A stretch of DNA of 64,000 nt from a bacterium BMS3Bbin08 (GTDB lineage Bacteria; Nitrospirota; Thermodesulfovibrionia; UBA6902; BMS3Bbin08), in NCBI GenBank assembly GCA_002897775.1, contig BDTR01000042.1:61280-125279 (forward strand), given 5' to 3'. The stretch's first letter is position 1. Every line of letters starts with the position of its first letter. The position numbers were made by a program, and so were the translations under genes. Shown piece after piece: positions 6,385-49,473 of this stretch. Below the pieces are notes generated by a model. It ran no database searches and was not told the origin of the DNA. It saw only the letters and a list, made by a program, of their open reading frames with translations.

Positions 6385-6431
6385 CGCGGATAATAAACTA
6401 CAGATTATCGCTGATATTCCTTCCTGCCGTT

Positions 6432-6466
6432 TTACCCGCCTGGTAGTGTGGCGGGCAGGCAGGTCT
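6432..6466 (+). repeat. Family W hairpin (TTACCCGCC-N9-GGCGGGCAGGC) after tig
   Basis: Related copies at 15963-16010 (inverted, after truB) and 24240-24275 (after SemiSWEET). Confidence 0.6.
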
Positions 6467-10115: not shown

Positions 10116-10182
10116 AAGTCAACTCATGGTTCGACAAGCTCACCATCGAGAATAGCTGATAGCTGATAGCTAAAAGTTATTC

Positions 10183-13042: not shown

Positions 13043-13096
13043 GAACGCAGCAAATAGAGAGCAGCGAGCAGCGAGATACAACTCTCTACTTTCTAC

Positions 13097-13405
13097 TTGC
13101 TACTCTCTACTTTTTTTAAAAAAATGATCGTCGGGATTCTTACTTTAGAGCTTCACCTGCCGGAAGCAAACTCCCTTAAATCAAAACGCATTATCATTAA
13201 AAGTCTCAAAGACAGGATAAAAAATAAATTCAACGTATCTATCGCTGAAGTCGGCGCCAATGATCTCTGGCAGCGGAGCGTGCTCGGGGCCGCCTGCGTG
13301 GCAAATGAAACAAGAATGGCAAATCAGATCCTTGACGGCGTAAGAAACATGGTCATAAGCAATCCTTCAGTTGAGCTGATCAACTCCTCGATGGAAATGC
13401 TATAA
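13097..13405 (+). CDS. DUF503 (YlxP-like) protein
   Basis: About 95 aa; conserved position between infB and rbfA; motif LELHLPEANSLKSKR; true start probably at MIVGIL. Confidence 0.65.
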   Translation: MLLSTFFKKMIVGILTLELHLPEANSLKSKRIIIKSLKDRIKNKFNVSIAEVGANDLWQRSVLGAACVANETRMANQILDGVRNMVISNPSVELINSSMEML

Positions 13406-13580
13406 TAATTCTGTCAAAAGCCCGTTGCCGGTCGTCAGTTGTCCGCAGCTGCTGACTATGGACTACTGACCATTGACCATTTACGAAAATCCAAATAAAA
13501 ATTTGCAATGTTAAATGTTAGTTTTGTCCAGCCTCAGGCGGATCCGCCGGGGCGGACATTTTTTGAATTGAGGAAAGCAC

Positions 13581-15948: not shown

Positions 15949-16075
15949 TCATTCAGTCCCGTAACGCGTTACCCGCCTGACCGCCACACTAAAAGGCGGG
16001 TAAACCGGCAGGTTTACATACCGCAGGTATGCAGGAATAAACACAATAATGACTACTTAAAGATTTAATCTAAAC

Positions 16076-16936: not shown

Positions 16937-17000
16937 CCACTGAGGACACTGAAAAAACCGTGAATAGAGAATCGAGAATAGTGAATTGCAAATAATTAAC

Positions 17001-17120
17001 TATGAGCTACAAGCTATGTATTTACCCCAGCCTGTCCCGTGGTCCAAGTCCAATTGGACTTTACGGGATAGTTTTAGGTTCGCCCTTTTTAAGAAGAACC
17101 TTACGGGGAGCTATGAGCTA
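17001..17120 (+). repeat. Interspersed hairpin repeat family X, full copy 1 (core CCCCGTGGTCCAAGTCCAATTGGACTTTACGGG)
   Basis: About 105 bp, about 98% identical to 49687-49789; contains palindrome GTCCAATTGGAC inside a CCCGT...ACGGG stem. Confidence 0.85.
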
Positions 17121-17145
17121 TTATCGATGGTGAGCTTGTCGAACC

Positions 17146-17394
17146 ATGAGCGATGAACTTATTATCAACATTAAAGTAGCGCCCCGCTCTTCAAGACCGG
17201 GAATTGCCGGCCCCTATAAGGACGGCCTGAAGGTTAAGCTGTCCTCCCCTCCTGTCGAAGGCAGGGCTAATAAGGAACTTATAGCGATACTTGCCAAAGA
17301 GTTCAGGATACCTAAAAAGAATGTTGAGATAATCAGGGGTAAGAGATCGAAGAACAAAGTTGTGAGATTAACTGGAGTGACCGGCAATCGGTAA
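17146..17394 (+). CDS. DUF167 (YggU-like) protein
   Basis: 82 aa; I.VAPRSSR..I.G..D.LKVKL...P.EG.AN.ELI..LAK pattern. Confidence 0.7.
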   Translation: MSDELIINIKVAPRSSRPGIAGPYKDGLKVKLSSPPVEGRANKELIAILAKEFRIPKKNVEIIRGKRSKNKVVRLTGVTGNR

Positions 17395-17464
17395 CAAGTA
17401 ACGGGTTACAAGTTACGTGTCACTATTATCCATGAGCTATGAACTATGAGCCATCAGCTACGAG

Positions 17465-18184: not shown

Positions 18185-18421
18185 TTTTCAATCAAAAGTG
18201 CAAGCCCTTTCAACAAATTATTACCAATTAGGCTCTGAATATTTTAAATAATACGAATAACAATTAACGGTCTTTTTATGGTAGTTACTATTAACGCTTA
18301 ACGAATAACGAATAACGGTCTTTATAAACCCCTTGAAAATGGCACTGATTTTAGGATATATTAATTGCTCGCATCATTCACTGATAACCGTAAAATAAAT
18401 ACCATATTTCGGAGGAATGAG

Positions 18422-20567: not shown

Positions 20568-20654
20568 ATAGCTCATGGCTCGTAGCTCATTGTTGATAGT
20601 AAAAAACTATGAGCTATCAGCTAAGAACTATGAACTAATTCCGGAGGAATTATT

Positions 20655-22268: not shown

Positions 22269-22402
22269 GTATTGCTTAGTTCGTTATTTGTATTCCGGGC
22301 AGCCCAGCCATCACGAAAGGTCTGGCAGGTGGCTGTTCAGGATTTGTTCTTTGAAATCATTTTATATTCCCGGGTAGCTCAGCTGGCAGAGCAGGTGGCT
22401 GT

Positions 22403-23035
22403 GCGAGCTCCGACAAGTCGGAGCGAGCAGTGAATTTGCAATGTTTCGTCTTTAACAGTGGCGAGCAACGAAAAGCAGGTGACCCTTGGCTAAGCGTGAA
22501 ACTCGACGCTACGCAGACCGCAGACAGTACTTAATTAAGGCGGTTCATAAGCGCCGCAAGAAAATCCGCCAGATGGCCGTTGATTATAAAGGCGGATGTT
22601 GTGAAGTCTGCGGTTATGATCGTTGTATCGAGGCATTAGACTTTCACCACAATAATTCTTCCGGGAAAGACTTTAGCATCTCAGATAAAGGCTATACGAG
22701 AAGCTGGGCTAAAGTTCAGGAAGAATTAGATAAGTGTAAGTTGCTTTGTGCCAATTGTCACCGCGAAATTCATGCTCAAAGTGCAGCTTTCCCGAGAAAT
22801 CGGGATTGAAAAATCGGGTGAATTCAGGGAAGCCTAAATGGTGAGTTAATCGCACCGTATGGTAATCCTGAGCGAAGTCCGCTGAAGGGTACAAAGTAAG
22901 CGGAAACGTGCAGAGACTAAGGAGTGAGGAACCCAACCAATAAACTCCTATTAGCGCCCGATCCCTAAACCCCGCACAAAAGCGGGATATGGGAATGAGA
23001 TAGTCCAGGCCTTGTGGAAACATAAGGAGCTCTTG
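22403..23035 (+). mobile_element. Group I intron (ORF-containing) in tRNA-Asn
   Basis: 5' exon ends in U and intron ends in G (omega G). Conserved catalytic-core elements: R-like GTGCAGAGACTAAGG (about 22908-22922) and S-like GAGATAGTCC (about 23000-23010) forming P7. HNH ORF sits in a 5' peripheral loop. Confidence 0.7.
22486..22809 (+). CDS. HNH homing endonuclease encoded within the group I intron
   Basis: 107 aa; CCEVCGY...LDFHHNN...CKLLCANCHREIH = HNH (beta-beta-alpha metal) motif with flanking Cys zinc ligands. Confidence 0.8.
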   Translation: MAKRETRRYADRRQYLIKAVHKRRKKIRQMAVDYKGGCCEVCGYDRCIEALDFHHNNSSGKDFSISDKGYTRSWAKVQEELDKCKLLCANCHREIHAQSAAFPRNRD

Positions 23036-23085
23036 TAACCACCCTGTCGGGGGTTCGAATCCCTCCCCGGGAGCCAATAAAAAAA

Positions 23086-23117: not shown

Positions 23118-23220
23118 CTATGTTTCAAGGGGGATTTGGATGAGAACCCGAGTGAGTTTACCCTGAGGCGTGAAACAACGAAGGGAATCCCTCTTTGAGA
23201 ATCCGATTAATTTTGCAATC

Positions 23221-23442
23221 ATGTGGTATTTATATATTATTCAAAAAAAAGATCGGTATTACACAGGGATCACTACAAACATTGAAAACCGCTTGCGCCA
23301 GCACGGAAACCAGCCGTTACTCTATATTGAAAACCATGAAAACAAATTCCAGGCAGCAAAGCGGGAAAGAGAGATCAAGGGCTGGTCAAAGCTAAAAAAA
23401 GAAGAGCTGATTGCAAAATTTAACAAGGTGAGTTTACCCTGA
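23221..23442 (+). CDS. Small GIY-YIG nuclease-domain protein (UPF0213/YhbQ-like)
   Basis: WYLYIIQKKDRYYTGITTNIENRLRQH...YIE...EIKGWSKLKKEELI = GIY-YIG core; ORF track starts at 23170 but M at 23221 fits the family. Confidence 0.65.
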   Translation: MWYLYIIQKKDRYYTGITTNIENRLRQHGNQPLLYIENHENKFQAAKREREIKGWSKLKKEELIAKFNKVSLP

Positions 23443-23482
23443 GGAGTGAAACGACGATGGGAACCCCGAGGGTGGTTTAGAC

Positions 23483-24233: not shown

Positions 24234-24393
24234 TCGGAATGGTGAGTTTACCCGCCTATCAGTGTGGCGGGCCTGCCGTATTTTAATGGTGAGCCTGGAT
24301 GCTACTGAAGCATAGTCGAACCGGAATGATGAGCTTGTCGAACCACCCCTCATACCCCTCAACCTCCTACCAAATCTACAAAAACAGCCCCAA

Positions 24394-24416
24394 CTATGGA
24401 AGTCCGACTTCCATAG
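24394..24416. repeat. Palindrome CTATGGAAGTCCGACTTCCATAG in 550-bp noncoding region
   Basis: Perfect 23-bp palindrome; larger relative at 24575-24615 (TATGAATAATTATGGAAGTCCGACTTCTATAATTATTCATA). Confidence 0.7.
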
Positions 24417-24732
24417 TTTTCCCCCGATATTACTCCTAACTATTTGTTTTATAAATAAATTTTGAGATTAAGAGTTGTAAACTCCTCCTATCCAGAAGGC
24501 TCGCAAAATAGCGTAACAGTGAATAATCATTCGACAACTCATTGAAAATAAAGAATAATATCTCCATTACCCAACTATGAATAATTATGGAAGTCCGACT
24601 TCTATAATTATTCATACGGATAAATCTTCAAACCACGCCTAGGGCGGATGAACTTCACTTAACCCTCACTCTACTCAAAACTCCACCCCAAACTCCTTAC
24701 CAAAACGACAAAAATGTTATAATCTACTTTTT

Positions 24733-24778
24733 TGCCCTGCCTGCCCCGTGGTCCAAGTCCATTTGGACTTTACGGGAA
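24733..24778 (+). repeat. Family X partial copy
   Basis: TGCCCTGCCTGCCCCGTGGTCCAAGTCCATTTGGACTTTACGGGA. Confidence 0.75.
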
Positions 24779-26055: not shown

Positions 26056-26078
26056 AGCAGATATATATTACTCCTCCC

Positions 26079-26109
26079 CCATCTATCGAGGTTGAACCTC
26101 GATAGATGG
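26079..26109. repeat. REP palindrome copy 1 (CATCTATCGAGGTTGAACCTCGATAGATG)
   Basis: Near-perfect 29-31 bp palindrome with TTGAA centre, immediately 3' of the RAYT gene. Confidence 0.85.
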
Positions 26110-26112
26110 GCC

Positions 26113-26853
26113 TTAATCAATAACCACATCCTGCATCAGCTCTTTATTCTGACTAAAAAACCTTTCTTTTAAAATACTTACAGCATCTTTCTTGTATTGC
26201 TTCTCTCCAGCAAACATATCAAGGAGATACTCCCTGTGGGTCACTGAAGGAAAATTAGCCTTTCCGATATAATCAGGAAAGCTGCTCCACCGATAGTCCT
26301 CCAAAGACTTTATTTTCCCCCGCCAATCTATCGAGGTTGAACCTCGATAGATGAGCTCCAGGGGGTTGAGATGGATATAATGGGGCAGATACTCAAAATG
26401 CTCCTGACTGATTATTAGTACCCCTTTAAATCTTCCCTGAAAAAGCCCGCCAACCCGCTTATATTTCTGATTGAAATACATGGTGTAACCAGTTCCTAGT
26501 TTCTGCATAAATCTTACAATCCCGTCTCTTGCCTTTTGTCTGATCAGCAAATGGAAATGGTTCGGCATAAGTGTAAAAACCAGGATTTCTACTAAGCGCT
26601 TCCTCGGCGGTCTTTCCTTTTTCAGAGCGCGGGTCGCGCGGAACTCAACATTCATACTGCGAGGATTAAAAAAATATCCGAAATTAGTAACAGGATTTTC
26701 ATCATTAAACTCATACAGGTTTTGTATAAATCGAAAATAATCATCGTCATCCATGAAAATCTTTCTTTTTTCAACTCCCCTGTTAAAGAGATGATAGACG
26801 TAATCATTTACAAATTGAGGTTTTCGCATTGCTTTAAATCTTACCACAGTCAT
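26113..26853 (-). CDS. IS200-like Y1 (HUH) transposase of the REP-associated tyrosine transposase (RAYT) type
   Basis: HUH motif MPNHFHLLI; catalytic Tyr region GTGYTMYFNQKYKRVGGLFQGRFK; flanked by palindromic REPs; start codon lies inside a REP. Confidence 0.8.
   Translation of the reverse strand: MTVVRFKAMRKPQFVNDYVYHLFNRGVEKRKIFMDDDDYFRFIQNLYEFNDENPVTNFGYFFNPRSMNVEFRATRALKKERPPRKRLVEILVFTLMPNHFHLLIRQKARDGIVRFMQKLGTGYTMYFNQKYKRVGGLFQGRFKGVLIISQEHFEYLPHYIHLNPLELIYRGSTSIDWRGKIKSLEDYRWSSFPDYIGKANFPSVTHREYLLDMFAGEKQYKKDAVSILKERFFSQNKELMQDVVID
26325..26353. repeat. REP palindrome copy 2, located in-frame inside the RAYT coding sequence
   Basis: Same palindrome (TTGAA centre) encodes LIYRGSTSIDWR within the transposase ORF. 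Confidence 0.8.
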
Positions 26854-26880
26854 CTATCGAGGTTCAACCTCGATAGATGG
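26851..26880. repeat. REP palindrome copy 3 (inverted centre TTCAA) overlapping RAYT start codon
   Basis: CATCTATCGAGGTTCAACCTCGATAGATGG; opposite orientation to copies 1-2. Confidence 0.85.
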
Positions 26881-27434: not shown

Positions 27435-28094
27435 TTAATCCGGCCATATCTGGGATCGGGTATAATCAACGGCTATTTCCGATTTCCCCTCAACGAGAAA
27501 ACCCACTCTCTTGCCAAAAAGGGATATATCCGAAACTCCATCGACATAATAATTGTTTATGTAAAAACGTATCTTACTGCCCAGTTTTTCCATCTTAAGA
27601 GTATTAAAGGAATCTTTCTGGAAAACCATTCTCCTTATCTTTCCGCCGGACAGCTCCTCTGAAATACCCTTTTGATACTTCTTAATCGAATAGGTCTCAT
27701 CTCCTATGATCTGAAACACATAACTATTGCTGGCATCACTGGCGCCCATCACAAATCCATAAGAGTGTTTACCTGAAGCCTTTACTGTTTTGATAGAAGT
27801 CTCTATTACGAACTCTCTGCCAAGTGGGAAATCCTGATAATACAGTATGAAGAGTTCACCTACCTCGCTTTTGTTCTCGATATAATACTTCCCGTTTTCT
27901 ATTCGCGCAGAAGCCATGGTTGTATTGAATATTTCCCAGTTATTGGCATTATTATCGAATTGTTCTTCGGTGCGCATGAACTTTTCTTCCTGAGGTCCGG
28001 AAGCTGCTTTTTCACTTGGAGATTCCGCATAAACTAATTGAATGTTTGAAACAAAAGTCGCAATCGCTAATAGAATAATAAATATATTTTTCAT
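27435..28094 (-). CDS. Secreted beta-rich domain protein, paralog of the C-terminal domain of the downstream PilZ/J-domain protein
   Basis: Signal peptide MKNIFIILLAIATFVSNIQLVYA; about 190-aa domain about 65% identical to residues about 540-734 of ORF 28257-30461; DNA-level similarity too. Confidence 0.5.
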   Translation of the reverse strand: MKNIFIILLAIATFVSNIQLVYAESPSEKAASGPQEEKFMRTEEQFDNNANNWEIFNTTMASARIENGKYYIENKSEVGELFILYYQDFPLGREFVIETSIKTVKASGKHSYGFVMGASDASNSYVFQIIGDETYSIKKYQKGISEELSGGKIRRMVFQKDSFNTLKMEKLGSKIRFYINNYYVDGVSDISLFGKRVGFLVEGKSEIAVDYTRSQIWPD

Positions 28095-28256
28095 AGCTGC
28101 TCCTTTCAGTACCAAAAAACTCTTAATTTCCCGAATACCATATTCGTCCAAATTCTATCTCAGGCATTCATGCCATGGGGTCAGAATGTCAGGACTTAAC
28201 CCAAATGTCAATAGTCAAGCCTGCCTACCGGCAGGCAGGTCTGACCCTGTTTTGTT

Positions 28257-30461
28257 CTATTTAGACCACATTTGCGTACGGGTATAATCAACAGCTACTT
28301 CCGATTTCCCCTCAACGATAAAACCCATTCTTTTGCCAAGAGGGGATAAATCCGAAACTTCACCGAGATAATTATCGTTTAAGTAAAAGCGCATCGTAGT
28401 ACCCTGTTTTTCCAACTTAAGAGTATTGAAGGAATTTTTCTGGAAAACCATGTCCTTTATCTTTCCGCTGGCCAGTTCCTGTGGAACGCCTTTGTAATAC
28501 CTCTTGATAAAATATAACCCATTTGAGCTGATCTGAAACGTATAATTATTGCCGGCATCTTTAGCGCCCATCACATATCCATAAGAGTGGTTGCCAGAAG
28601 CCCTCACTGTTTTCATAGCAACCTCTACTATGAACTTCCTGTCAAGAGGAAAATCATAAGCATTCAGCGTGACGTATTTGCCTCTCTCGCTTTTGTTCTC
28701 GATATAATACTTCCCGTTTTCTATCCGTGCAGAAGCCATGGTTGTATTGAATGTCTCCCAAGTCTTATCCTCATTATTATCGAATTGAGTCTTATATAGC
28801 ATGAACATTTCGCTCGGAGACTTGGAAGTTGGTTTTTCAGGTTTAAGGCTAGCGAGAAGTTCTTTAGCAGCCTCTTCCTCGGCAAGCTTTGCAGCCTTTT
28901 TCCTGGCAGCCTCTTCCTCGGCAAGCTTTGCAGCCTTTTCTTTGGCAGCCTCTTCCTCAGCAAGCTTTGCAGCCTTTTCTTTAGCAGCCTCTTCCTCGGC
29001 AAGCTTTGCAGCCTTTTCTTTGGCAGCCTCTTCCTCGGCAAGCTTTGCAGCCTTTTCTTTGGCAGCCTCTTCCTCGGCAAGCTTTGCAGCCTTTTCTTTG
29101 GCAGCCTCTTCTATCTCAACAGCCTCAGGTAAAAGTGTCCTGTCATATTCAGCCTTCCTGCCCGGATCAGACAGGTGTTCATGCGCCTCTGTAATATATG
29201 AGAATATTGCGGTCAGTTTCCCCTTCAGGTCGTCCTGGTCGTCAGACGGCAGGGCAAAGTGCCTGTCCGGGTGGAACTCCTTTGATTTGCTGTAGTATGC
29301 CTTGCTGATCTCTTCAGCAGACGCGTTTTTTTCAGTGCCGAGTATACCGTAATATCCTATGGACCACAGCTTTTTAAGTATGTCTTCCACTTTATTCAGG
29401 AACTCAGGCGTGATCTCTTCAGCCGGTTCTTTTATGATCTCTTCAACGTCTTCGATCTTGAGCTCCGCAGGCGCTCTTTCTTCTTTCCTGACAGCGATCA
29501 TCCCTATGCTGAGAAGGGCGCAGATGGTTTTGAGGGTATCGGGTTCAGGCAAAAGTGAAAGCGACAACACGGTTTTTAATGAACGTTTGCCATCTATACA
29601 GGAAAGGATCGCCTTGTCAGATCCATCAAGTTTGACATCCTGAAAGATGTTCATCGGGCTGGGCGAAAGATCAAGCACTGCCGTCAGAGGCGGGATTACC
29701 TTTTTTATGTGAAGGATATTATTAACGTTTTTGATACCGTTGCATATAATATTTGCGGCACTGATCCTGAGAGTTATCAAATCGTCTGAAGAAAGAGAGC
29801 CTTCATGGAACCTGAACTTGCCGGTTTCCATGGCAAAAAGACTGAGTATGATCTCCTCTATCTGATGCTGTACCGCGACAAAGACCTCTTTTGGTTTTAG
29901 GCATCCGAGCTCTACAAGGACCTTGCCCAGCTTGCTCCCGCTTTCTTCAGATAAACCGCGCGCCTTGTCAAATTCTTCCTGGCTGATCCTTTTTTGCCTT
30001 ACAAGAAGTTCTCCAAACCCATCCTCTTTGTAATTGGACGAGGCAAATATCATGTCCCCGTTCCTTATGAAGACCTCCTTGATTACCGAGCCGCTCGCAA
30101 CCCTGAGAACCCCTGTTTTTGTGCTCCTCTGCAGGCCGATCAGCACATCTGCCAGTGCAAAGCTCTTTAAAGAGCCCTGAAGGCTGTCCAGTCTTTTGAA
30201 CCCCACCCTGAGTTCATCGTCTGTTTTGTTTACCCATGCGACCTCGCCCCTAAACTGTATCTCAGGGTCAAAGACCTTTACATCCGCCTGTGTGCCGACA
30301 GTAAGCTTCGGGGCATTCTCAAAAACCGCGCCAAGCCCGTCCGAATAGTCAAGTACTCTGCCTCTATAGGTCTCTGAGCCTACCTTTACCTCACACTCAG
30401 ACCGGCTTTCATATCTTTTAAAATGTCTTCTGTCCTCATCGCTCATAATTAAATTATACAA
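28257..30461 (-). CDS. Multidomain PilZ - DUF4388 - J-domain (DnaJ) protein with EEAAKEKAAKLAE x7 coiled-coil repeats and C-terminal beta-domain
   Basis: N-terminal PilZ (RRHFKR...DYSDGLG), DUF4388 (SLKSFALADVLIGLQRSTKTGVLRV), J-domain with HPD (YYGILG...EFHPDRH), seven 13-aa repeats, C-terminal jellyroll-like domain. Confidence 0.7.
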   Translation of the reverse strand: MYNLIMSDEDRRHFKRYESRSECEVKVGSETYRGRVLDYSDGLGAVFENAPKLTVGTQADVKVFDPEIQFRGEVAWVNKTDDELRVGFKRLDSLQGSLKSFALADVLIGLQRSTKTGVLRVASGSVIKEVFIRNGDMIFASSNYKEDGFGELLVRQKRISQEEFDKARGLSEESGSKLGKVLVELGCLKPKEVFVAVQHQIEEIILSLFAMETGKFRFHEGSLSSDDLITLRISAANIICNGIKNVNNILHIKKVIPPLTAVLDLSPSPMNIFQDVKLDGSDKAILSCIDGKRSLKTVLSLSLLPEPDTLKTICALLSIGMIAVRKEERAPAELKIEDVEEIIKEPAEEITPEFLNKVEDILKKLWSIGYYGILGTEKNASAEEISKAYYSKSKEFHPDRHFALPSDDQDDLKGKLTAIFSYITEAHEHLSDPGRKAEYDRTLLPEAVEIEEAAKEKAAKLAEEEAAKEKAAKLAEEEAAKEKAAKLAEEEAAKEKAAKLAEEEAAKEKAAKLAEEEAARKKAAKLAEEEAAKELLASLKPEKPTSKSPSEMFMLYKTQFDNNEDKTWETFNTTMASARIENGKYYIENKSERGKYVTLNAYDFPLDRKFIVEVAMKTVRASGNHSYGYVMGAKDAGNNYTFQISSNGLYFIKRYYKGVPQELASGKIKDMVFQKNSFNTLKLEKQGTTMRFYLNDNYLGEVSDLSPLGKRMGFIVEGKSEVAVDYTRTQMWSK
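28858..29112. repeat. Seven near-perfect 39-bp tandem repeats (coding EEAAKEKAAKLAE)
   Basis: GCAGCCTCTTCCTCGGCAAGCTTTGCAGCCTTTTCTTTG repeated head-to-tail on the plus strand. Confidence 0.85.
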
Positions 30462-35311: not shown

Positions 35312-36562
35312 ATCCCGTTAGAATTCCTTCACCCACACCTTAGGCCTATAAACTACTTGTGCGGGAAGTCCTGCCTACCGGTTTGCATGCCGTATGCAGG
35401 GCAGGCCCATAAAGTCGATGCGACTCCCGATGCGGGTCTACACTGAGGGTCGCTTCGACTTCGCGAGACTCGCTTCGAGCCACAGGGTTTTGTTATAGGA
35501 TAAAACCATGGCATGTCATGGTTTCGTGACATCATGCTTTTATGACATGTCATGGTTTTTGCCTGTTTATGTTTGCTCTTCAGCACCCCTGGATCCGGTC
35601 TTCTTAACAACTTTTTTTCATTAATAAAAAAGCGCCTTCATGAACCTACAAGCAAAAATCCACGCCACAACTTCCTGTTTTTATTGTATTTTTTTATTGA
35701 TATAACTTTTCCTTCCTTAGCGGCCTTCCCTGTTAAGGGCTCCCCGACTGATCAAAAAAAAATAACTACAACATTTACTAACAAAACTGGCACATTTCTT
35801 GTTACACATTCTATCATGGTAAGGCCTTCACATGTGAAATGTCCCAAATTGGCAGATACCATAGACTGGATAATATTGGTGGCGGGGACGAGCCTTACCT
35901 CCCCAGCCCTTTTCAGCTTCAGGAATACTGCCTGAATAAAGACCATTACAGGTGCCCTTTCCTGTTGAAGCCGAAAAATAGCGGCTATACGGAAACAATT
36001 TAACAGACCTTAACGTTGGGAGGTCATAAGAAAAGCAGTGTTTAGCGTAAATAATAACATATTAGAGGCCACCACTAAATGCAGGAGCGGGTTTTCCTGT
36101 TTGTCCGGGGAGCGGGATTGTCTTTGTGAACCTGAGGATCATTTTTCGGACAGGATCATTTTTATCAGGTCAGGTGATTGCGGCTTTTGCGAGTACAGGC
36201 TTTCATTCGGATACTCCTTTATTTGCACATGTCCCACAAGGAAGGAGATCTACAGCCGCTATAAGATCTGATCTTTACTTTGACGGAAATTTAGAAGACA
36301 CTGTACGGTCAGCGAAATACCAGATTATGCCCTTTTATTATGAAGCCTTTTAAGGACTGTTATAGCGTTAATCCAAGCAGTACGAACATCAGCTTCTTAA
36401 TGCGTTATTGCCGAAATGATTTTGGATCGCGCGTGATCTATAAAAAAACGGCGCCGGGTCAGCCCGGACCTGATGTGAAAAAACTGAACGATATTGTCGA
36501 TCACTAATTGAGATTAATAATTAAAAAAAGGCGGGGTCATAAGCAAAACCCTTGATAACACC

Positions 36563-37212: not shown

Positions 37213-38690
37213 CAGCACACCTTGATTATGAAAGCCTTAGAGACGGCGAGTACGGCAAAGCCCTCACAAAAGACACGGATAAGTTCACTGAAGAGATCAA
37301 AGGCAGAACCGGTGAAGCGGGACTCGCGACAGCAGACCCCCTTAAGATGTACCTCCGGGAGATGAGGGCCTACCCTCTGATCTCAAGAGAACGTGAAGTT
37401 GAGATAGCCAGAGAAATAGACGAAAGAAAACGGGACGCGTTAAGAACCGTCCTTTCCATGCCCTTTGCAGTAAAAAAAGTACTATCCTTTTCTGACGCGC
37501 TCAGGAAAAAACAGATCTCGACAAAAGACGTGATCATAATGAAGGAAGACATATCAGACGCAGAACAAAAAAAGATCCTGGACAAGTTCCTGAAAGATAC
37601 CAGGTCATTAAGAAACCTGCTGTCAAGAAGGAACGGTCATAATGGAAAGCGCAACACAGCAAAACTGAAGGCTGTGAGGGATAAACTGGAAAAAAACAAA
37701 CTGACAACAATTGACAGGATGTTCGGACTCAACCTCAGGGAAGCAAAAATTACGGCTTTTCTGGGGCAGTTCAAAGAGTATACCTCGGCATACAACAACA
37801 TCATCACGCAGACCGGCAATAAAAACAACGGCAAAAGCGGAAAACCGTACGGTGATCCCGTAAAATTGGCCGGGGAAAAAAGGTTCATCGAATCCGAGCT
37901 CGGGCTTAAGGGAAAAGAAGCAGCAAAAGCGCTCGAGACCTGCGTGAGCAATGAGGAAAAAGCATTAAGCGCAAAAAAACTGCTTGTGGAGGCAAACCTG
38001 CGGCTTGTGGTGAGCATAGCAAAAAAATACATGGGAAAAGGTCTGAGTCTGTCAGACCTTATACAGGAGGGCAACATAGGCCTGATGAAGGCTGTTGATA
38101 AATTTGATTATACAAAGGGGTATAAGTTCAGCACCTACGCGAACTGGTGGATACGCCAGTCTATTACTCGCTCGCTGGCAGACCAGGCACGGACCATAAG
38201 GATCCCGGCGCATATGGTAGAAACCATGAACAGGTTAAAACGGGTTACCGGTGACCTTGTGCAGGAACTGGGCAGAGAACCAAATCCGGAAGAGATCAGC
38301 CAAAGAATGGGACTGCCACTGAACAAGGTGCGGGTGATCCTTAAGATCTCCAAAGAGCCTGTGTCACTGGAAACCCCGCTGGGCAGGGAAGAGGACAGCA
38401 TTCTCGGAGACTTTATTGAGGACAAGACCGCGCCTTCGCCGCTTGAAGAGGTCATGAAGAACGACCTGCAGAGTCAGATAAAGGCCATTATAGGCTCCCT
38501 CGACACAAAAGAGGCAGCGATCATCAAAAGGCGCTTCGGCATTGAAAGTGAAGATTCATTTACTCTTGAAGAAGTCGGGCAGCAATTCAATGTCACCAGG
38601 GAGCGCATAAGACAGATCGAGGTAAGGGCACTCAGAAAACTGCGGTATCCGTTAAAAAACCAGGCTATCAAAGAGATCGCCAAATTATAG
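37209..38690 (+). CDS. rpoD: RNA polymerase primary sigma-70 factor RpoD
   Basis: Regions 1.2 ([10 protein letters not shown]), 2 ([34 protein letters not shown]), 3, 4 (rpoD box). Confidence 0.9.
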
Positions 38691-38821
38691 AGCGTTCCGA
38701 AAAGCCGGTTCGTCAACAACCGAATTGATCATAAGGGTCGGGTATATGGGCGATAAGTCCCGCTCTCTTCGTATAAGGGACGCGATCAGGAAACATTTAT
38801 AATTTCCCCTTTATCTTTTTA

Positions 38822-38854
38822 CCCCGTTAGAAGGGCTGAGGTGTTCTAACGGGG
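38822..38854 (+). terminator. CCCCGTTAGAA...TTCTAACGGGG hairpin (repeat family T) after rpoD
   Basis: Perfect 11-bp stem; same consensus recurs at 42425-42457, 44524-44557, 57132-57166, each just 3' of a stop codon. Confidence 0.55.
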
Positions 38855-38940
38855 TTTATCAGGATCAAGCCTGCAATACAAATGTATTTCATTCTGAAGG
38901 CACTTCAGTGATCATCTGTGTTATTTTAGGGGGGGGGATT

Positions 38941-39168
38941 ATGGCGACCTTATCATTCAAGATCGGCCATGTTTATTGTTATGACTGCGTAAAAGCAGTG
39001 GGAAAGTTTGTGGGTAAAATGAAGGGTGTACTCTCGGTCGAGGTAAAAAATAATGACAGCGCTGTTATTGAGTATGATCCCTCCAGGATCGAGTTCAGCG
39101 AGGAAAAGTTCAGGCGGATCGTCATGGACTGCATAGACAGGCTCGGATTTAGAATAAAAAAAACTTGA
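38941..39168 (+). CDS. Small HMA-like (ferredoxin-fold, CxxC) protein
   Basis: SFKIGHVYCYDCVKAV...VEVKNNDSAVIEYD resembles heavy-metal-associated domain topology. Confidence 0.35.
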   Translation: MATLSFKIGHVYCYDCVKAVGKFVGKMKGVLSVEVKNNDSAVIEYDPSRIEFSEEKFRRIVMDCIDRLGFRIKKT

Positions 39169-39292
39169 AGGACTAACTTTGTTTTTCAGCCTTTTTCAAC
39201 GATCAGCCCATACAGCTATAAATATAAATAAATTGACAAAGACTTTTTCAAACAAATATAATTTATAAAATTTGAGGAGGAGGATATGAATT

Positions 39293-39622
39293 ATGTCTGA
39301 AGGTGTTACAAATGTTACTCAGGACTCGTGGGACGCGGAAGTTCTTCAGTCACCTGACCTGATACTGGTCGATTTTTGGGCGGCGTGGTGCGGTCCCTGT
39401 AAAATGGTTGCTCCAATGGTGGAAGAATTGGCCAGGGAATATGAAGGTAAAGCCAGGTTTGTCAAACTCAATACTGACGAGAACCCCGATCTTGCGAGTC
39501 GTTATAAGATCCGGGGGATACCCACTCTGATGTTTTTCAAAAAAGGCGAGATAGTGGAGCAGATAGTCGGCGTAGTTCCCAAGGCACAGCTCAAGGCGAA
39601 GATCGACTCGCTCCTTGGATAA
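39293..39622 (+). CDS. trxA: Thioredoxin
   Basis: WAAWCGPCK active site. Confidence 0.9.
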   Translation: MSEGVTNVTQDSWDAEVLQSPDLILVDFWAAWCGPCKMVAPMVEELAREYEGKARFVKLNTDENPDLASRYKIRGIPTLMFFKKGEIVEQIVGVVPKAQLKAKIDSLLG

Positions 39623-40558
39623 ATGCTTTTTGATACTGTAATTATCGGCGGAGGTCCCGCGGGGCTCACGGCAGGACTTTATACTTCAAGGGCCAGACTA
39701 AAAACCCTGCTTATAGAAAGAGGCCTTCCAGGCGGTCAGGTCATGACCACTGAGCTGGTGGAGAACTACCCGGGGTTTGAGGAAGGGATCATGGGCCCGG
39801 AACTTTCCGCCAAAATGGAAAAACAGGCCAGAAAGTTCGGCCTTGAGATAGTTCAGGATTCTGTCCGCGAGATCTCCCTTGATGGAAAAACAAAAAAAAT
39901 AATTCTGGAGGAAGGCCGGCAGTACGAGGCAAAGAGCGTTATCCTGTGTACCGGCGCCCATCCAAGGCTTCTGGGTGTTAAAGGAGAAGCAGAACTCAGG
40001 GGAAAAGGTGTTTCATACTGCGCGACCTGTGACGGCGCCTTTTTCAAGGGGCAGAAAATCGCGGTCGTGGGCGGTGGGAATTCAGCGGTGGAAGAGGCTC
40101 TGTTTTTAACGAAGTTCGCCAAGGAAGTTCACGTGATCCACAGGAGAGACCAGCTAAGGGCTGACAGGATAGTCCAGGAACGCGCCTTTGCCAATGAAAG
40201 AATAAAGTTTATCTGGGACTCTGTCGTAGAGGAGATAAGAGGGGATGAAGAGGTCACCTCTTTACTTATAAAGAACAGGAAAACACAGCAGGAATCAGTG
40301 CTTGATGTTCAGGGCATTTTTATCTATGTTGGTTATATCCCGAACACCGAGTTTCTCAGCGGCTTTATTACCCTTGACGAGGAAGGCTATATAGTTACCG
40401 ACCATAATATGGCCACTTCCGTACCGGGAGTTTTTGCGGCAGGCGACGTAAGGGCCAACTCTGTGAAACAGATCTCGGTTGCCGTTGGAAGCGGGACGAC
40501 AGCCGCCATATCAGCGGCAAAATATATTGAGGAAAACTTCCAAGAGAGATTAAAATAA
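39623..40558 (+). CDS. trxB: Thioredoxin reductase (NADPH)
   Basis: FAD GxGxxG (IIGGGPAGL), redox-active CATCDG, NADPH GGGNSA. Confidence 0.9.
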   Translation: MLFDTVIIGGGPAGLTAGLYTSRARLKTLLIERGLPGGQVMTTELVENYPGFEEGIMGPELSAKMEKQARKFGLEIVQDSVREISLDGKTKKIILEEGRQYEAKSVILCTGAHPRLLGVKGEAELRGKGVSYCATCDGAFFKGQKIAVVGGGNSAVEEALFLTKFAKEVHVIHRRDQLRADRIVQERAFANERIKFIWDSVVEEIRGDEEVTSLLIKNRKTQQESVLDVQGIFIYVGYIPNTEFLSGFITLDEEGYIVTDHNMATSVPGVFAAGDVRANSVKQISVAVGSGTTAAISAAKYIEENFQERLK

Positions 40559-40595
40559 ATCTTACTCTCTTTAGTCAGTGATTTTAAAATCACCC

Positions 40596-41912
40596 ATGTT
40601 TGAAGCATTATCAGAGAAATTAGACGGCATACTGAAAAAACTGAAGGGACGCGGGTTCCTTAGGGAAGAGGATATAGTGTCCGCCCTTAAGGAGATCAAA
40701 ATGGCCCTTCTTGAGGCAGACGTTAATTTTAAGGTTGTCAAGGATTTCGTGGAAAAAGTCAGGGTAAAGGCTGTCGGCAAGGAGGTCACTGACAGCATTA
40801 CCCCTGGACAACAGGTAGTGAAAATAGTCCATGACGAACTCTGCAGTCTCATGGGCGGCGGCCATAGCAAGATAAAGCTTGCTCCTAACCCTCCAACCAT
40901 TATCATGCTGGTCGGCCTTCACGGCTCGGGTAAGACAACTTCAGCGGCAAAACTCGCGAAAAGCTTTAAAAAAGACGGCAGAAGACCGCTGCTTGTACCC
41001 CTTGACACAGCCCGGCCTGCCGCCATTGATCAGCTGATCACCCTGGGCGCTCAGATAGATACCCCGGTGTACGCGACAAAACCTGGGGAAAACCCTGTAA
41101 ACATCTGGCCCGAAGCTGTCAAACAGGCTAATTCCGAAGGAAGGGATGTTCTTATACTTGATACGGCAGGCAGGCTCCATATAGACGAGCAGTTAATGAA
41201 AGAACTGGAAGAAATAAAAGAACAGGCAAAACCGGCTGAGATCCTGCTTGTTGCCGACGCCATGACAGGACAGGACGCTGTCAACATCGCGAAGTCTTTT
41301 AACGACAAACTGAGCCTGGACGGCATTATTCTCACCAAAATGGACGGTGACGCCAGAGGCGGCGCGGCGCTCTCTATGGTCTCTGTTACCGGCAAGCCGG
41401 TCAAATTCATTGGAGTCGGCGAAAAAATTGATTTGCTTGAGCCGTTCCATCCGGACCGCATGGCCTCGAGAATTCTGGGCATGGGTGATGTTTTAAGCCT
41501 TGTGGAAAAGGCCCGGGATACTATGGATATGGAAGAAGCGCTTAAGCTGCAGAAAGGCATCAGCAAGAACAGGTTCACGTTTGAGGACCTCAAAACCCAG
41601 ATAAAACAGATAAAGAAAATGGGTCCGCTTGAGAACATACTGGGGATGATACCGGGCATGGGCAAGCAGCTTAAAGGTATTTCTGTGGACAACAAACAGT
41701 TTCAAACGATCGAGGCCATCATCAATTCCATGACCAGGCAGGAAAGAATGAATTATGTTATAATTAACGGCAGTCGCAAGAGGAGAATAGCCGCTGGAAG
41801 CGGTACCGCAGTGCCCGACGTGAACAGGTTGCTAAAGCAGCATCTCGCGATGAAAAAGATGCTTAAAAAGTTCAAAGGCGGGAAACTCAAGTTCGGTAAT
41901 TTTTTTAATTAG
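40596..41912 (+). CDS. ffh: Signal recognition particle protein Ffh
   Basis: MFEALSEKL start, NG domain [15 protein letters not shown] domain; ORF track start 40578 is slightly upstream. Confidence 0.95.
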
Positions 41913-41925
41913 GAGGAGAACTGAT

Positions 41926-42162
41926 TTGGTAAAAATAAGACTTACACGAAAAGGCGCCAAAAAGAAGCCTTTCTATAGAGTGATTGCAGCTGACTCAAGG
42001 GCGAGGAGAGACGGGCCGTTCCTGGAGATCCTGGGGACTTATAATCCTTTAACAGACCCTTCAGAGATAAAAATAAACACGGACAGGGCCAAATATTGGC
42101 TTAGTCACGGGGCACAACCAACTGCCACTGTTAAGAAACTCTTGAAAATCGCGGGCTTGTAA
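41926..42162 (+). CDS. rpsP: 30S ribosomal protein S16
   Basis: [30 protein letters not shown]. Confidence 0.9.
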
Positions 42163-42192
42163 TATCCGGTCCAGGATCGCATGGAGGTGGAG

Positions 42193-42423
42193 ATGAGAGA
42201 ACTAATCGAACAAATGGCCAAGGCTCTGGTTGACAAACCTGAAGATGTTTCTGTCTCTGAAGTGCAAGGAGAAAGGACAACCGTCTATGAGCTGCGTGTC
42301 GCACAGAGTGATCTCGGCAAGGTCATAGGAAAGCAGGGCAAGACAGCAAGGTCTATGAGGACCATCCTGAGTGCCGCCGGAACAAAGCTTGGCAAGAGAT
42401 GCGTACTTGAGATATTAGAGTAA
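42193..42423 (+). CDS. KH-domain RNA-binding protein (YlqC-like)
   Basis: [16 protein letters not shown] GxxG-type KH core; conserved position after rpsP. Confidence 0.7.
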
Positions 42424-42424
42424 A

Positions 42425-42457
42425 CCCCATTAGAAGGGCAAAGGTCTTTTAACGGGG
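42425..42457 (+). terminator. Family T hairpin after KH-protein gene (where rimM would normally lie)
   Basis: CCCCATTAGAAGGGCAAAGGTCTTTTAACGGGG. Confidence 0.5.
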
Positions 42458-42579
42458 TAATGAGTAAAATTTAAAATAATTTTTTTAAATTCAAGAGTCC
42501 TGAATACAGATTAGAGTTTAGGATTTAGACCTGTCCGCCTTATAGGGTTTTGGCAGGCGGGTATTAGGATTTATATCCC

Positions 42580-43326
42580 GTGAAATGTGATGTCCTGACC
42601 CTCTTTCCTGATATAATAACCGCCTATCTTAAAGAGAGTATTTTAAAAAGGGCTCAGAAAAAAAAACTCCTTGAGGTCAAGACGTATAACATCAGGGATT
42701 TTGAGCCGGGTAAACATAAGTCTGTTGACGATTATCCTTTCGGGGGCGGCGCGGGAATGGTAATAAAGCCTGAGCCTCTCTTTAAGGCGATCGATTTTAT
42801 TAAAAAAGACGGGGAACCGAGAAAAATAATTCTCTTAAGCCCCCAGGGGAAACCCTTTGATCAGTCAGTCGCGGAAGAGTTCTCCCGAGAGAAAAAGCGG
42901 CTTGTGTTCATATGCGGGCGCTATGAAGGCATTGATGAAAGGGTCAGAGCAGTCCTGGTCGATGAGGAGGTCTCGATCGGTGATTATGTCATGACTGGCG
43001 GAGAACTGGCCGCACTTGTTATAATTGATGCCTCGGTCAGGCTTATTAAGGGAGCCCTTGGTGACGAAAGGTCTGCTGAGGAGGATTCTTTTTCGCGGGG
43101 ATTGCTTGACTATCCCCATTACACAAGACCAAGGGAATTCAGGGGATTCAGCGTCCCTGACGTGCTTTTGTCCGGGAACCATAAGGAAATATTACGCTGG
43201 AGGAGAAAAGAGGCGTTGAGAAAGACCCTTGAGAAAAGGCCTGACCTGATCGAAAAGATACATCTTACTGATGAAGATAAAGAAATAATAGCAGAAATAA
43301 AGGCATCCTCTAAAGAGGATGCCTGA
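42580..43326 (+). CDS. trmD: tRNA (guanine37-N1)-methyltransferase TrmD
   Basis: [12 protein letters not shown]..., SPOUT trefoil-knot motifs ([22 protein letters not shown]). Confidence 0.9.
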
Positions 43327-43395
43327 TTTCACAGATAAAAAATACAGATAACCGGCGTAATTAATTTAATAGAATTAAACAGGAGGAGTACTACA

Positions 43396-43749
43396 ATGGA
43401 TGCCGTAAAAATAGTAGAAGAGGGTTTCAAAAAGAAGATCCCGCCGTTCAGCATTGGTGACACGGTTAAAGTGAGCATGAAGATCAAAGAAGGCGACAAG
43501 GAAAGGATCCAGGCATATGAAGGGATCGTGATAGCCAGAAGAGGCGGCGGTATTCGCGAGACTTTCACTGTGAGAAAGATATCCTACGGCATCGGGGTGG
43601 AGAGGATCATACCCCTTCATTCTCCTTTGATCGACAAGATACAAGTAGTAAAAGAAGGGGCCGTAAGAAGGGCCAAGCTGTACTACCTGAGAGACAGGAA
43701 AGGCAAGGCGGCAAAAGTGAAAGAAAAGGGATTTAAAAGGTCCAGATAG
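43396..43749 (+). CDS. rplS: 50S ribosomal protein L19
   Basis: FSIGDTVKV...[16 protein letters not shown]...TFTVRKIS. Confidence 0.9.
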
Positions 43750-43781
43750 AATTTAACCGATCTAAATTTATTTTCTGTGGG

Positions 43782-44504
43782 GTGGTACCCCGGTTATTAG
43801 CAGTTAGTTTTCCGCTATGGCGAAACTCGCTCAAGCGGTTTATCTATCAACTAACAACTATCAACTGGCTAATGTCTCCTCCCAAAATTCTACGAACACT
43901 GTTCTCACACGATGAAAAGGTAAGAAAAAATTACCCTGTTACCTGCGGTATCGATGAGGCAGGCAGGGGGCCGCTTGCAGGCCCGGTAGTAGCTGCTGCC
44001 GTAATACTTCCGGCACGACTTGTCATTGAAGACCTCAGAGATTCAAAGCAGATACCTGAAAACAGGCGTATAAGGCTCTTCTGGGACATTGTAATCAGTT
44101 GTCCGGATATCGGGATTGGAATTGTTGATGAAAATACGATAGACAGGACAAATATACTTAAAGCCACAAAACTCGCAATGCAGATGGCTGTTAAGGACCT
44201 GAGCCGCAAGCCGGACATGCTGTTGATAGACGCGGTCAGCCTGCCTGAGCTCAATATTAGCCAGAAACCAATAATCAAAGGCGAATCAGTGAGCGCCTCG
44301 ATCGCCGCCGCGTCTATTGTAGCGAAAACAGTGAGGGACCATATCATGACCGCTTACCACGAAGAGTATCCTGTTTATAATTTTAAAGGACATAAAGGCT
44401 ATCCCACAAAAGAGCATGTTGAACTTATACGCCTGCATGGGCCCTGCCCGATCCACAGGAAGAGTTTCAGAAAGGTAATGGGCATGGAACTACCGTTTAA
44501 ATAA
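43782..44504 (+). CDS. rnhB: Ribonuclease HII
   Basis: CGIDEAGRGPLAGPVVAAAVIL catalytic N-motif; true start probably downstream of ORF-track start. Confidence 0.8.
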   Translation: MVPRLLAVSFPLWRNSLKRFIYQLTTINWLMSPPKILRTLFSHDEKVRKNYPVTCGIDEAGRGPLAGPVVAAAVILPARLVIEDLRDSKQIPENRRIRLFWDIVISCPDIGIGIVDENTIDRTNILKATKLAMQMAVKDLSRKPDMLLIDAVSLPELNISQKPIIKGESVSASIAAASIVAKTVRDHIMTAYHEEYPVYNFKGHKGYPTKEHVELIRLHGPCPIHRKSFRKVMGMELPFK

Positions 44505-44523
44505 AAAAGTAGAGAGTAGCAAT

Positions 44524-44557
44524 CCCCGTTAGATTCTGATGAATCTGGACAACGGGG
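44524..44557 (+). terminator. Family T hairpin after rnhB
   Basis: CCCCGTTAGATTCTGATGAATCTGGACAACGGGG. Confidence 0.5.
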
Positions 44558-44596
44558 TAAATACATAGCTCATAGTAAAATTCCAAAGAAGAAATA

Positions 44597-44712
44597 ACAT
44601 TAAATCTATAAATGCACAGCGAGCGGTTAGTAAGCGAATATAATAATAATTATTCCTTACATTGTGCTTACCCTCCAGTTTTTGTGGAGGGTGATCACTA
44701 ATCTAAAATTTG
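44597..44712. repeat. Family Z repeat, left arm of a 4.8-kb inverted pair
   Basis: Reverse complement matches 49474-49640 (which carries two extra hairpin insertions), about 80% identity; contains CCCTCCAGTTTTTGTGGAGGG hairpin. Confidence 0.75.
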
Positions 44713-44729
44713 CAATTTAAAATGTATCT

Positions 44730-49461: not shown

Positions 49462-49473
49462 GTTATATTTTAC

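Follow-up and report, generated by a model that had tools for sequence, protein, structure and literature searches.

What fills the intergenic spacers of the uncultured bacterium BMS3Bbin08 is the question raised by a 64,000-nucleotide stretch of its contig BDTR01000042.1 (positions 61,280 to 125,279), here called the window, in which ordinary housekeeping genes (pilMNOPQ, tig-clpPX, infB-rbfA-truB, korABCD, ffh-rpsP-trmD-rplS, rpsF-ssb-rpsR and uvrB/uvrC) are accompanied by many short repeats. A first-pass annotation of this DNA had described its spacers as colonised by at least six families of hairpin repeats resembling miniature inverted-repeat transposable elements (MITEs). The spacers, which amount to 8.3 kb against 55.6 kb of coding DNA, are probably a mosaic of tandem heptamer arrays, of hairpins of the repetitive extragenic palindrome (REP) type (27-45 nt) and of composites thereof. 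The best description is that of known kinds of repeat, namely heptamer arrays like the short tandemly repeated repetitive (STRR) sequences together with REP-type hairpins, in a new host lineage.

The dense colonisation by several families of short repeats, with elements nested in each other, has been confirmed both by enrichment over shuffled sequences and by the repeats recovered in self-BLAST, and every motif of the first-pass annotation was found within 0-40 nt of the place given for it. The claim that almost every intergenic region above 80 bp contains such an element was an overstatement, since about 23 of the 37 spacers (a count made partly by inspection) bear a recognisable element, 11 of these being a heptamer array. 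Neither are the families six equivalent, MITE-like ones: two of the supposed modules are tandem heptamer arrays, and the hairpins fit better into the REP class, in which small hairpins are moved in trans.

The host is a marine Nitrospirota lineage (BMS3Bbin08/BMS3Abin10), deep-sea in habitat and uncultured, known from metagenome-assembled genomes (MAGs); the IF-2, REP-associated tyrosine transposase (RAYT) and DUF167 products of the window are identical to proteins of bacterium BMS3Bbin08, of BMS3Abin10 and of NCBI Nitrospirae/Nitrospirota MAGs. More than 10 independent assemblies share the window sequence (about 99.9%), and assemblies of several marine samples in ENA, NCBI and Logan contain its part 619-60694 at 99.2-99.98% identity. 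The arrangement is reproduced by SPAdes, MEGAHIT, Logan and NCBI assemblies, and the 209-nt spacer bearing the hairpin designated X below is unchanged in 9 of 9 assemblies. Because independent assemblies agree, the repeats are not an artefact of assembly. The repeat families also reach beyond the window, since they are carried by L012, a 7.5-kb contig of the same genome with heptamer arrays, both REP types (REP-1 and REP-2, below), a W-related hairpin and a GTGAGC..GTCGAAC module.

With an array defined by 11 or more matches out of 14 at lag p, the spacers hold 21 arrays of period 7, where dinucleotide shuffles give 0.37; periods 5, 6 and 8-11 yield 0-2 arrays, and the coding DNA holds one of period 7. 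Spacer autocorrelation peaks at lag 7 (0.302) and lag 14 (0.283), other lags lying at about 0.265, and that of the coding DNA has 3-nt periodicity alone; Tandem Repeats Finder (TRF) likewise reports many spacer arrays of period 7. At least 8 unit types are present, including GAGCTAT, CTCTACT, GAATNGN, TAACGNN, TTTTAGA and TGACCAT. The arrays often lie within 0-20 nt of a start or stop codon, many of them ending 0-17 nt from it, and several are inverted pairs able to form long hairpins (folding z -5.4 to -6.2). Two motifs that had been taken for dispersed modules, CTATGAGC and CTCTCTAC, recur only degenerately (1-3 mismatches), because they belong to tandem 7-nt arrays. The arrays described individually are the following.

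10148-10179, minus strand: heptamer array, CAGCTAT x3 on that strand, from the rpmB stop to the dciA start
13053-13113, plus strand: two abutting, roughly inverted arrays (GAGCAGC type, then CTCTACT type), finishing 10 nt before the DUF503 start codon; hairpin fold z -2.6
13460-13487, plus strand: heptamer array of TGACCAT type
16959-16988, plus strand: heptamer array of GAATAGA type, of the same unit family as 58249-58285, reversed
17390-17458, plus strand: GTAACNN array (17390-17417) and CTATGAG array (17428-17458)
18290-18320, plus strand: heptamer array of TAACGAA type
20568-20637, plus strand: inverted pair of GAGCTAT-type arrays in the korA/korB spacer (fold 20568-20654, -29 kcal/mol, z -5.4)
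58249-58285, plus strand: heptamer array, ATTCACN x4-5, ending 6 nt before the IMPase start codon
59212-59248, plus strand: heptamer array of CTCTACT type

The number of units varies by strain. Thus, the array 17428-17458 has 5, 6 or 10 units among 10 assemblies, while the adjacent X spacer is invariant. Moreover, the repeats break assemblies, as two contigs (L124 and L125) end within this array. The window therefore contains head-to-tail 7-nt units, in short arrays, restricted to the spacers and polymorphic in unit number. Intergenic heptamer repeats near start codons have been described in cyanobacteria and marine Beggiatoaceae, with translational control suggested as their role (PMC4679880), and Nitrospirae are not among the hosts listed in that survey. 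The arrays of the window resemble these STRR/TAACTGA repeats (MacGregor 2015, PMC4679880) in having 7-nt tandem units in arrays of 2-10, in being confined to spacers, often just 5' of start codons, in showing several, often mixed, unit types per genome and in breaking assemblies. They differ in the host (Nitrospirota), in their units, in being often inverted pairs and in being physically interleaved with REP-type hairpins. The published units CCCCAGT, TTGGTCA, CAACAGT and TAACTGA were not found as arrays in the window; TGACCAT is one base off the reverse complement of TTGGTCA, which is a resemblance only. In the metagenome contigs carrying the X hairpin (L028-L110, 537 kb) there are 57 period-7 arrays, as against 8, 11 and 8 for periods 6, 8 and 10, so that period 7 is the commonest tandem repeat in contigs picked solely for that hairpin. 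This abundance in unrelated X-bearing contigs suggests a mechanistic link between the heptamer arrays and the hairpin repeats.

Among the hairpins, two REP families have been assigned to their transposases. RAYT-1, encoded in the window, is bracketed by the palindrome ATCTATCGAGGTTSAACCTCGATAGAT (REP-1), a further copy of which lies on L012 at 7370. By homologue search, another RAYT of this genome (P0030, 59% identity) was located on contig BDTC01000017. This RAYT-2 (L012 5160-5867) is surrounded by the palindrome AACTATGGAAGTCSGACTTCCATAG (REP-2), at L012 4933, 5124, 5891 and 6637, and REP-2 also occurs in the window, away from RAYT-2.

26113-26853, minus strand: RAYT-1, Y1/HUH transposase (PF01797), with an internal REP-1 at 26326-26353
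26078-26110, unstranded: REP-1 palindrome beside RAYT-1, z -7.4
26851-26879, unstranded: REP-1 palindrome on the opposite flank of RAYT-1
24392-24418, unstranded: REP-2 palindrome AACTATGGAAGTCCGACTTCCATAGTT, cognate to RAYT-2 on the other contig
24576-24616, unstranded: REP-2 palindrome, extended variant, z -7.0

The proposal that additional RAYTs would exist elsewhere was thus correct for one family, because REP-2 flanks RAYT-2 and recurs in the window; for the families X, T and W, no cognate enzyme was identified in the sequence examined. A RAYT gene flanked by a palindrome that is also dispersed elsewhere, the organisation of a REPtron, was found for REP-1 and REP-2 only. The likeness to REP/REPIN-RAYT systems (Nunvar 2010; Bertels & Rainey 2011, PMC3116915; Di Nocera 2013, PMC3733652) extends to imperfect palindromes of 27-45 nt, mostly intergenic and single or in inverted doublets, to RAYTs each flanked by their own REP and to the presence of several REP families and RAYTs in one genome. 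Unlike those systems, X, T and W have no adjacent RAYT in the sequence examined, and both RAYTs carry a REP copy inside their coding sequence. As to the latter, each RAYT ORF (open reading frame) encloses its own REP, read as IYRGSTSID in RAYT-1 (26326-26353) and as NYGSRTSID in RAYT-2 (L012 5634); the paralogues differ in the REP codons, yet each stays palindromic and matches its own REP. A literature search returned no account of REP copies within RAYT coding sequence, and the internal REPs (YRGSTSID / YGSRTSID) are regarded as a separate novel feature of which no description was found.

Furthermore, hairpins with CCCGT..ACGGG feet number 8 in the 8.3 kb of spacer, with one more across the 3' end of the DUF2784 gene (45075) and a single one in the remaining coding DNA (55.6 kb). 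X and its variant X2 have the common form GCCTGY-CCCGT(G/A)GTC...GGACTTTACGGG. The X family had been listed as a 105-bp element at 17001, 24733 and 49681; a 103-bp pair does exist (17014-17116 and 49687-49788, 98% identity), and at 24735-24777 the core stands alone. The composite X element consists of a bulged hairpin at 17036-17067 (CCCGTGGTCC..GGACTTTACGGG) plus a second small hairpin, and an X2 hairpin lies at 59122-59158, inside a 129-bp element.

17014-17116, plus strand: composite X element, 103 bp, identical in 9 of 9 assemblies, amid GAGCTAT heptamers
24735-24777, plus strand: solo X-core hairpin, 14 nt 5' of a methyltransferase start codon
38822-38854, unstranded: T hairpin CCCCGTTAGAA..TTCTAACGGGG, z -4.5
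42424-42458, unstranded: T hairpin variant, beginning right after the stop codon of the KH-domain gene
44524-44557, plus strand: T2 hairpin, with CCCCGTT/AACGGGG feet, GGAC bulge and variable apical stem
57133-57166, minus strand: T2 hairpin, reversed relative to the 44524 copy, 9 nt past the uvrC stop codon

The T family had been said to follow stop codons directly. Three full copies and a half copy do lie 0-19 nt past a stop codon, and one lies at 131 nt (full copies at 38822, 42424, 44524 and 57133; half copy at 35313). The two T2 copies differ in their apical stems with complementarity kept, and they are oppositely oriented, both being 3' of plus-strand genes; the X2 pair is likewise opposite. 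A covariance model of the X family gave 61-63 bits for the X copies (n=3) and 38 bits for the X2 copies (n=2). There is no T-run at any T or X hairpin, and a terminator scan of 38001-58000 called no T, X or X2 hairpin, though canonical terminators exist in the window at 21660 and 23080; the lack of T-runs and the occurrence in both orientations led to rejection of T and X as intrinsic terminators. With Rfam 15, a group I intron was the sole family above threshold in the window; the gathering and E-value scans of the window and of hairpin loci together gave that intron, tRNAs and a tmRNA and no other family, and at the hairpins of seven loci nothing matched even at E<=5.

The X hairpin is also found in other genomes. 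Two other Nitrospirota MAGs (GTDB) contain the exact 27-mer of X, and a looser pattern matches 80 or more metagenome loci, the matches listed comprising 54 distinct sequences. All share one fold, in which the lower stem NCCCGUG/UACGGGN is followed by a UU bulge, by GUCC/GGAC and by an apical stem that varies. The covariance model was made from 18 X-type sequences, and covariation was measured on 67 distinct matches: 97.6% of the stem cells hold a base pair, 3-6 different pair types occur at the closing pair and at each of three apical pairs, and there are 95 double-change cells where shuffling gives 25.6 (none of 500 shuffles is as high), a signal that breaks down once the partners are slid. 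At one conserved pair, G.U is found in 53 of the 67 sequences. Phage origin of the hairpin was considered and rejected, with 1 match only in IMG/VR, and literature searches for the hairpin sequence returned unrelated primers only.

REPs that bear a GTAG/GTRG tag at one end of a 20-40-bp stem-loop and contain G-T pairs have been described, some copies being intragenic, in uvrA and tRNA-synthetase genes (PMC3733652). X shares with them the G-T pair, compensatory stem changes with G-T pairs tolerated and relatives inside uvrA and tRNA-synthetase genes. It carries a GTGG/GTAG tag too, but reads CCC-GT(G/A)G-TCC..GGA-CTTTAC-GGG, so that, unlike in the GTAG REPs, an extra CCC/GGG foot surrounds the tag, which is partly paired, inside an extended stem with a TT bulge rather than at an unpaired end; the supplements of PMC3733652 contain no sequence match to X. 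Intragenic copies occur in metagenome contigs (L090, L075, L043 and L035/L084; none in the window), where an X-type hairpin lies far inside long ORFs, in frame and on the antisense strand, in UvrA, isoleucyl-tRNA synthetase (IleRS), Pgk and a PD-(D/E)XK nuclease, encoding PVKS..DHGA. Aligned to solved UvrA structures, the insertion in UvrA stands out as a clean gap of 12 residues. The Rickettsia palindromic elements (Ogata 2000) are similar in that a palindrome in frame in essential genes adds a short peptide; unlike these, X is much shorter, adds 10-12 residues and has its intragenic copies in the contigs of other organisms only.

At one locus, an X-type hairpin lies within the loop of another hairpin. 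Relative to the flanking genes, X is antisense to both in 15 cases, sense to both in 8, between convergent genes in 7 and between divergent genes in 5, with no sense bias. In L031 (4200-4560), L076 and L079, X abuts CGTC-tagged REP-type hairpins (GTCATTCC..GGGAATCC), so that different hairpin families cluster at the same sites. Moreover, some X-bearing contigs look cyanobacterial, HIP1 (GCGATCGC) adjoining the hairpin in L041, L073 and L087. The small dispersed repeats (SDRs) that Elhai and colleagues are said to have described in Nostoc in 2008 are reportedly mobile, hairpin-capable repeats of tens of nucleotides (21-27 nt), often found within heptamer repeats or MITEs and inserted without an obvious transposase. 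X and the SDRs are both very small and hairpin-capable, X having 30-36 nt against 21-27 nt. Given the cyanobacterial-looking contigs, X may overlap with a cyanobacterial repeat family.

The third group of hairpins, the GC-rich W with its two tiers, was located at three places in the window, with two relatives.

6423-6464, plus strand: W hairpin, with CCTGCC/GGCAGG outer tier, CCCGCC/GGCGGG inner tier and GTTTTA bulge
15971-16012, minus strand: W hairpin, inverted, 88% identical to the 6423-6464 copy
24240-24275, plus strand: third W copy, opening a 557-nt mosaic spacer
28218-28241, unstranded: W-related hairpin CCTGCCTACCGGCAGGCAGG, z -4.5, present also in L012 and in similar form in L112 and L115
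35370-35406, unstranded: W-related hairpin whose loop holds a further hairpin; a T half copy lies at 35313-35323

Mini-hairpins like CCTGCCTNCCGGNAGGCAGG appear in unrelated contexts (L112 1460-1530, L115 2340-2380, L012 2035 and window 28218-28241), that of L112 within a duplicated tRNA-Asn 5' fragment beside a GIY-YIG ORF and that of L115 in an apparently intron-containing tRNA; the CCTGCCTNCCGGNAGGCAGG type may be another very small mobile hairpin.

Hairpins and heptamers are further assembled, as modules, into composite repeats of 100-190 bp. The module GGTGAGCTTGTCGAACCA was located at 10127 (minus), 17129 (plus) and 24328 (plus, one mismatch). By self-BLAST, 17109-17150 is the reverse complement of 10123-10164, 5' of dciA (42 bp, 95%).

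24281-24345, plus strand: GTGAGC..GTCGAACC module in two copies, the first split by a small hairpin
17109-17150, plus strand: GAGCTAT heptamers plus module GGTGAGCTTGTCGAACC, running into the DUF167 ATG
44554-44694, plus strand: 141-bp repeat, earlier named Y/Z, matching 49514-49701 in reverse complement at about 85% identity
59080-59208, plus strand: 129-bp element, matching 49783-49911 in reverse complement at 97% identity, with TAACGAA-type heptamers
49462-50011, plus strand: 550-nt spacer made almost wholly of repeat modules, with heptamers and GC hairpins
45076-45202, plus strand: 58-bp tandem repeat, 2.2 copies, over the DUF2784 3' end, with CCGTTAGAT / CACGGGG motifs

The spacer 49462-50011 contains a Z copy (49514-49701, minus), an X element (49687-49788, plus), the 129-bp element (49783-49911, minus) and three more heptamer arrays, the last of which ends 7 nt short of uvrB. 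The composites are like MITEs in being short, non-coding and multi-copy, and unlike them in having neither a parent insertion sequence (IS) nor terminal inverted repeats plus target-site duplications: none of the latter was seen by eye at the X, 129-bp and Z boundaries, and no parent or related IS was found in the window. At the 58-bp repeat, which the C-terminus of DUF2784 enters, a 1-nt indel at 45067 in L022 gives PPPR* in place of PPPVRSGEKTPRI*.

The comparison of near-identical strains shows that the spacers are the fast-evolving part of the genome, because whole-spacer swaps are added to the unit-number alleles. Two spacers are wholly different in content between strains whose genes are about 99.9% identical. 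One is the trxB-ffh spacer (40559-40595, plus strand), of which the L018 version is 57 nt longer and carries inverted AGTAGAG/CTCTACT arrays plus a terminator-like hairpin. The other is the rnhB-DUF2784 spacer, which in L022 holds heptamer arrays around a CCCCGCC..GGCGGGG hairpin and in the window holds a T2 hairpin plus the 141-bp repeat.

A mechanism can be proposed for the mosaic. The heptamer arrays gain and lose whole units, presumably by replication slippage, and REP-1 and REP-2 would be spread in trans by the RAYTs as single-stranded hairpins, by analogy with characterised REP/RAYT systems. X/X2, and probably T, are bulged hairpins with CCCGT...ACGGG feet and a GTRG tag; the X family, which is distributed over many uncultured bacteria, is read as a very small mobile DNA insertion because it occurs in either orientation, nests in hairpins and has in-frame copies in housekeeping genes. 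Finally, nested insertion and recombination among modules would generate the 100-190-bp composites and, by recombination, the replacement of spacers.

Several points weigh against this interpretation. X is fixed in 9 of 9 assemblies, and transposition of X, T or W was seen in no case here; spacer replacement could result from recombination between co-existing lineages and not from element mobility. No RAYT adjoins X, T or W in the window, in L012 or at the 80 or more metagenome loci, and X was rejected as the REP of RAYT-1, of RAYT-2 or of the metagenomic RAYT of L031, the sole one near an X hairpin, since each has a different palindrome of its own. T was tried as a clear member of the X family and scored only 10-15 bits (E 0.02-0.6), so that it is left as possibly related, and the W hairpins (z -1 to -1.9) are little more stable than shuffled sequence. 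In the covariation analysis only the variable pairs are informative, because the search pattern itself dictates which positions are conserved in the metagenome hairpins, and copy counts in the host genome cover the 64-kb window plus 7.5 kb only. The codon-adjacent positions and the prevalent G.U pair are also compatible with a role at the RNA level.

This last consideration leads to the strongest of the rivals, which is nonetheless judged unlikely: the repeats would be selected functional RNA elements, the hairpins acting as 3'-end stabilisers or atypical terminators and the arrays beside start codons being bound by a single-strand-binding regulator, for instance a cold-shock protein (Csp) or an S1-like protein with an oligonucleotide-binding (OB) fold, as has been proposed for the TAACTGA repeats of Beggiatoaceae (PMC4679880, MacGregor). 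The T copies found 0-19 nt past stop codons (three full, one half) and the many arrays ending 3-17 nt from a start or stop codon speak for such a role, and the heptamers of PMC4679880, for which translational control was suggested, are similarly placed; the conserved G.U (53 of 67 X-family sequences) implies one functional strand, and the window copies of X (3 of 3) are sense to their flanking genes. In the metagenomes, however, X is more often antisense than sense to its neighbours, and it lies in frame within genes; T2 copies stand in opposite orientation 3' of plus-strand genes, as do X2 copies. The hairpins lack a U-tract and none is terminator-like, although canonical terminators occur at 21660 and 23080, and whole spacers, as well as the unit count of one array, vary among strains 99.9% identical.

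Less credible still are the six or more classic MITE families of the original proposal. These would be non-autonomous deletion derivatives of IS elements, bounded by terminal inverted repeats and target-site duplications, and would depend for their movement on DDE-type or IS200-type transposases whose genes lie elsewhere. The composites of 103-190 bp in 2-3 copies (85-98% identity) do have the appearance of MITEs, and some spacers of other strains, with inverted heptamer arrays around a central hairpin, resemble them in architecture. What recurs, however, are the 30-45-nt hairpins and not the composites, the X core being found alone at 24735 and in other genomes; consistent terminal inverted repeats with target-site duplications were not seen by eye, there is no related IS in the sequence examined, and two of the families originally proposed are tandem arrays. 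As for mis-assembly or collapse of the metagenome bin, or chimeric joins at repeats, the two contigs that stop inside the 17428-17458 array (L124 and L125) speak for it, in that repeats do break assemblies. It is made scarcely conceivable by the agreement among SPAdes, MEGAHIT, Logan and NCBI assemblies of several samples, which give the same arrangement over 619-60694 (99.2-99.98% identity), and by the X spacer being identical in 9 of 9 assemblies. The mosaic of heptamer arrays and REP-type hairpins is therefore preferred.

A pattern best known in cyanobacteria and giant sulfur bacteria, heptamers plus hairpins, is thus encountered in an uncultured deep-sea Nitrospirota, where near-identical strains with unit-number alleles and spacer swaps constitute a natural experiment on the turnover of such DNA. 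The practical effects are broken metagenome assemblies, spurious ORFs and 5'/3' untranslated regions that can change between strains.

With regard to the enzyme that would move X, a lead was found in small GIY-YIG genes, which are present in 19 of the at least 80 hairpin loci (506 kb). In many of these, including several apparently independent lineages, an X-type hairpin lies at most about 215 nt 5' of the gene and on the same strand, usually in short inverted and direct arrays, and the array is often directly 3' of a tRNA or tmRNA gene. When GIY-YIG homologues were picked by protein alone, three of four had a hairpin doublet 50-170 nt upstream (two from Nitrospirota, one from Omnitrophota), two of the three directly after tRNA-Asn. 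It is accordingly put forward, as a tentative and rather doubtful possibility, that the X-type hairpin (NCCCGTG-stem-loop-stem-TTTACGGGN, with CACGT..ACGTG variants) is the non-autonomous partner of a small GIY-YIG cassette, whose protein would be of about 88 residues and of the 'M[FY]YVYIL...' type, the cassettes being placed just 3' of tRNA or tmRNA genes; the association is suggestive only. On this reading, a REPtron-like system would have a GIY-YIG nuclease replacing the RAYT, solo hairpins in spacers and genes, including X of the window, would be dispersed copies, and the GTGAGC..GTCGAAC module would be left over from the end of a cassette; the GGTGAGCTTGTCGAACCA module resembles the end of the GIY-YIG cassette in L113. 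If true, the link would supply the missing enzyme for 'orphan' REPs without a known transposase.

In the window, no X hairpin is next to a GIY-YIG gene, and among the named matches no GIY-YIG paralogue of the M[FY]YVY type belongs to the host genome. The GIY-YIG ORF of the window (23219-23428, PF01541) is of a different subtype. It comes directly after tRNA-Asn and its terminator, and direct repeats of 40 bp (23152-23191 and 23428-23467, 90% identical; region 23140-23476) lie on its two sides. In a related metagenome locus (L108 1-900), three GIY-YIG cassettes follow one another in tandem; both the first and the second are closed by a copy of the tRNA 3' end and a terminator, which suggests that such cassettes home to the 3' flank of tRNA genes.

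Some further features of the window deserve description. At 22368-23076, a group I intron of some 640 nt (RF00028, 79.5 bits, core 22761-23027) interrupts the anticodon loop of a tRNA gene and carries an HNH-endonuclease-like ORF at about 22486-22809. The joined exons give tRNA-Asn(GUU), or Thr(UGU) by an alternative junction, and L112 and L113 (Nitrospirota) contain an uninterrupted tRNA-Asn(GTT) of very similar sequence.

Finally, a 39-bp tandem repeat (28860-29111, 6.5 copies, 94% matches) lies within coding DNA, in a gene for a protein with PilZ, PatA_N and DnaJ domains (28257-30461, minus strand). Its copy number varies among assemblies, with 39 bp more in L017, and the product has 1036 residues in L016 against 734-742 elsewhere. 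The same gene shares a 509-bp segment (27457-27962 and 28279-28787, 81% identity) with the adjacent minus-strand gene, which encodes a hypothetical protein of 219 residues, as a local partial duplication.

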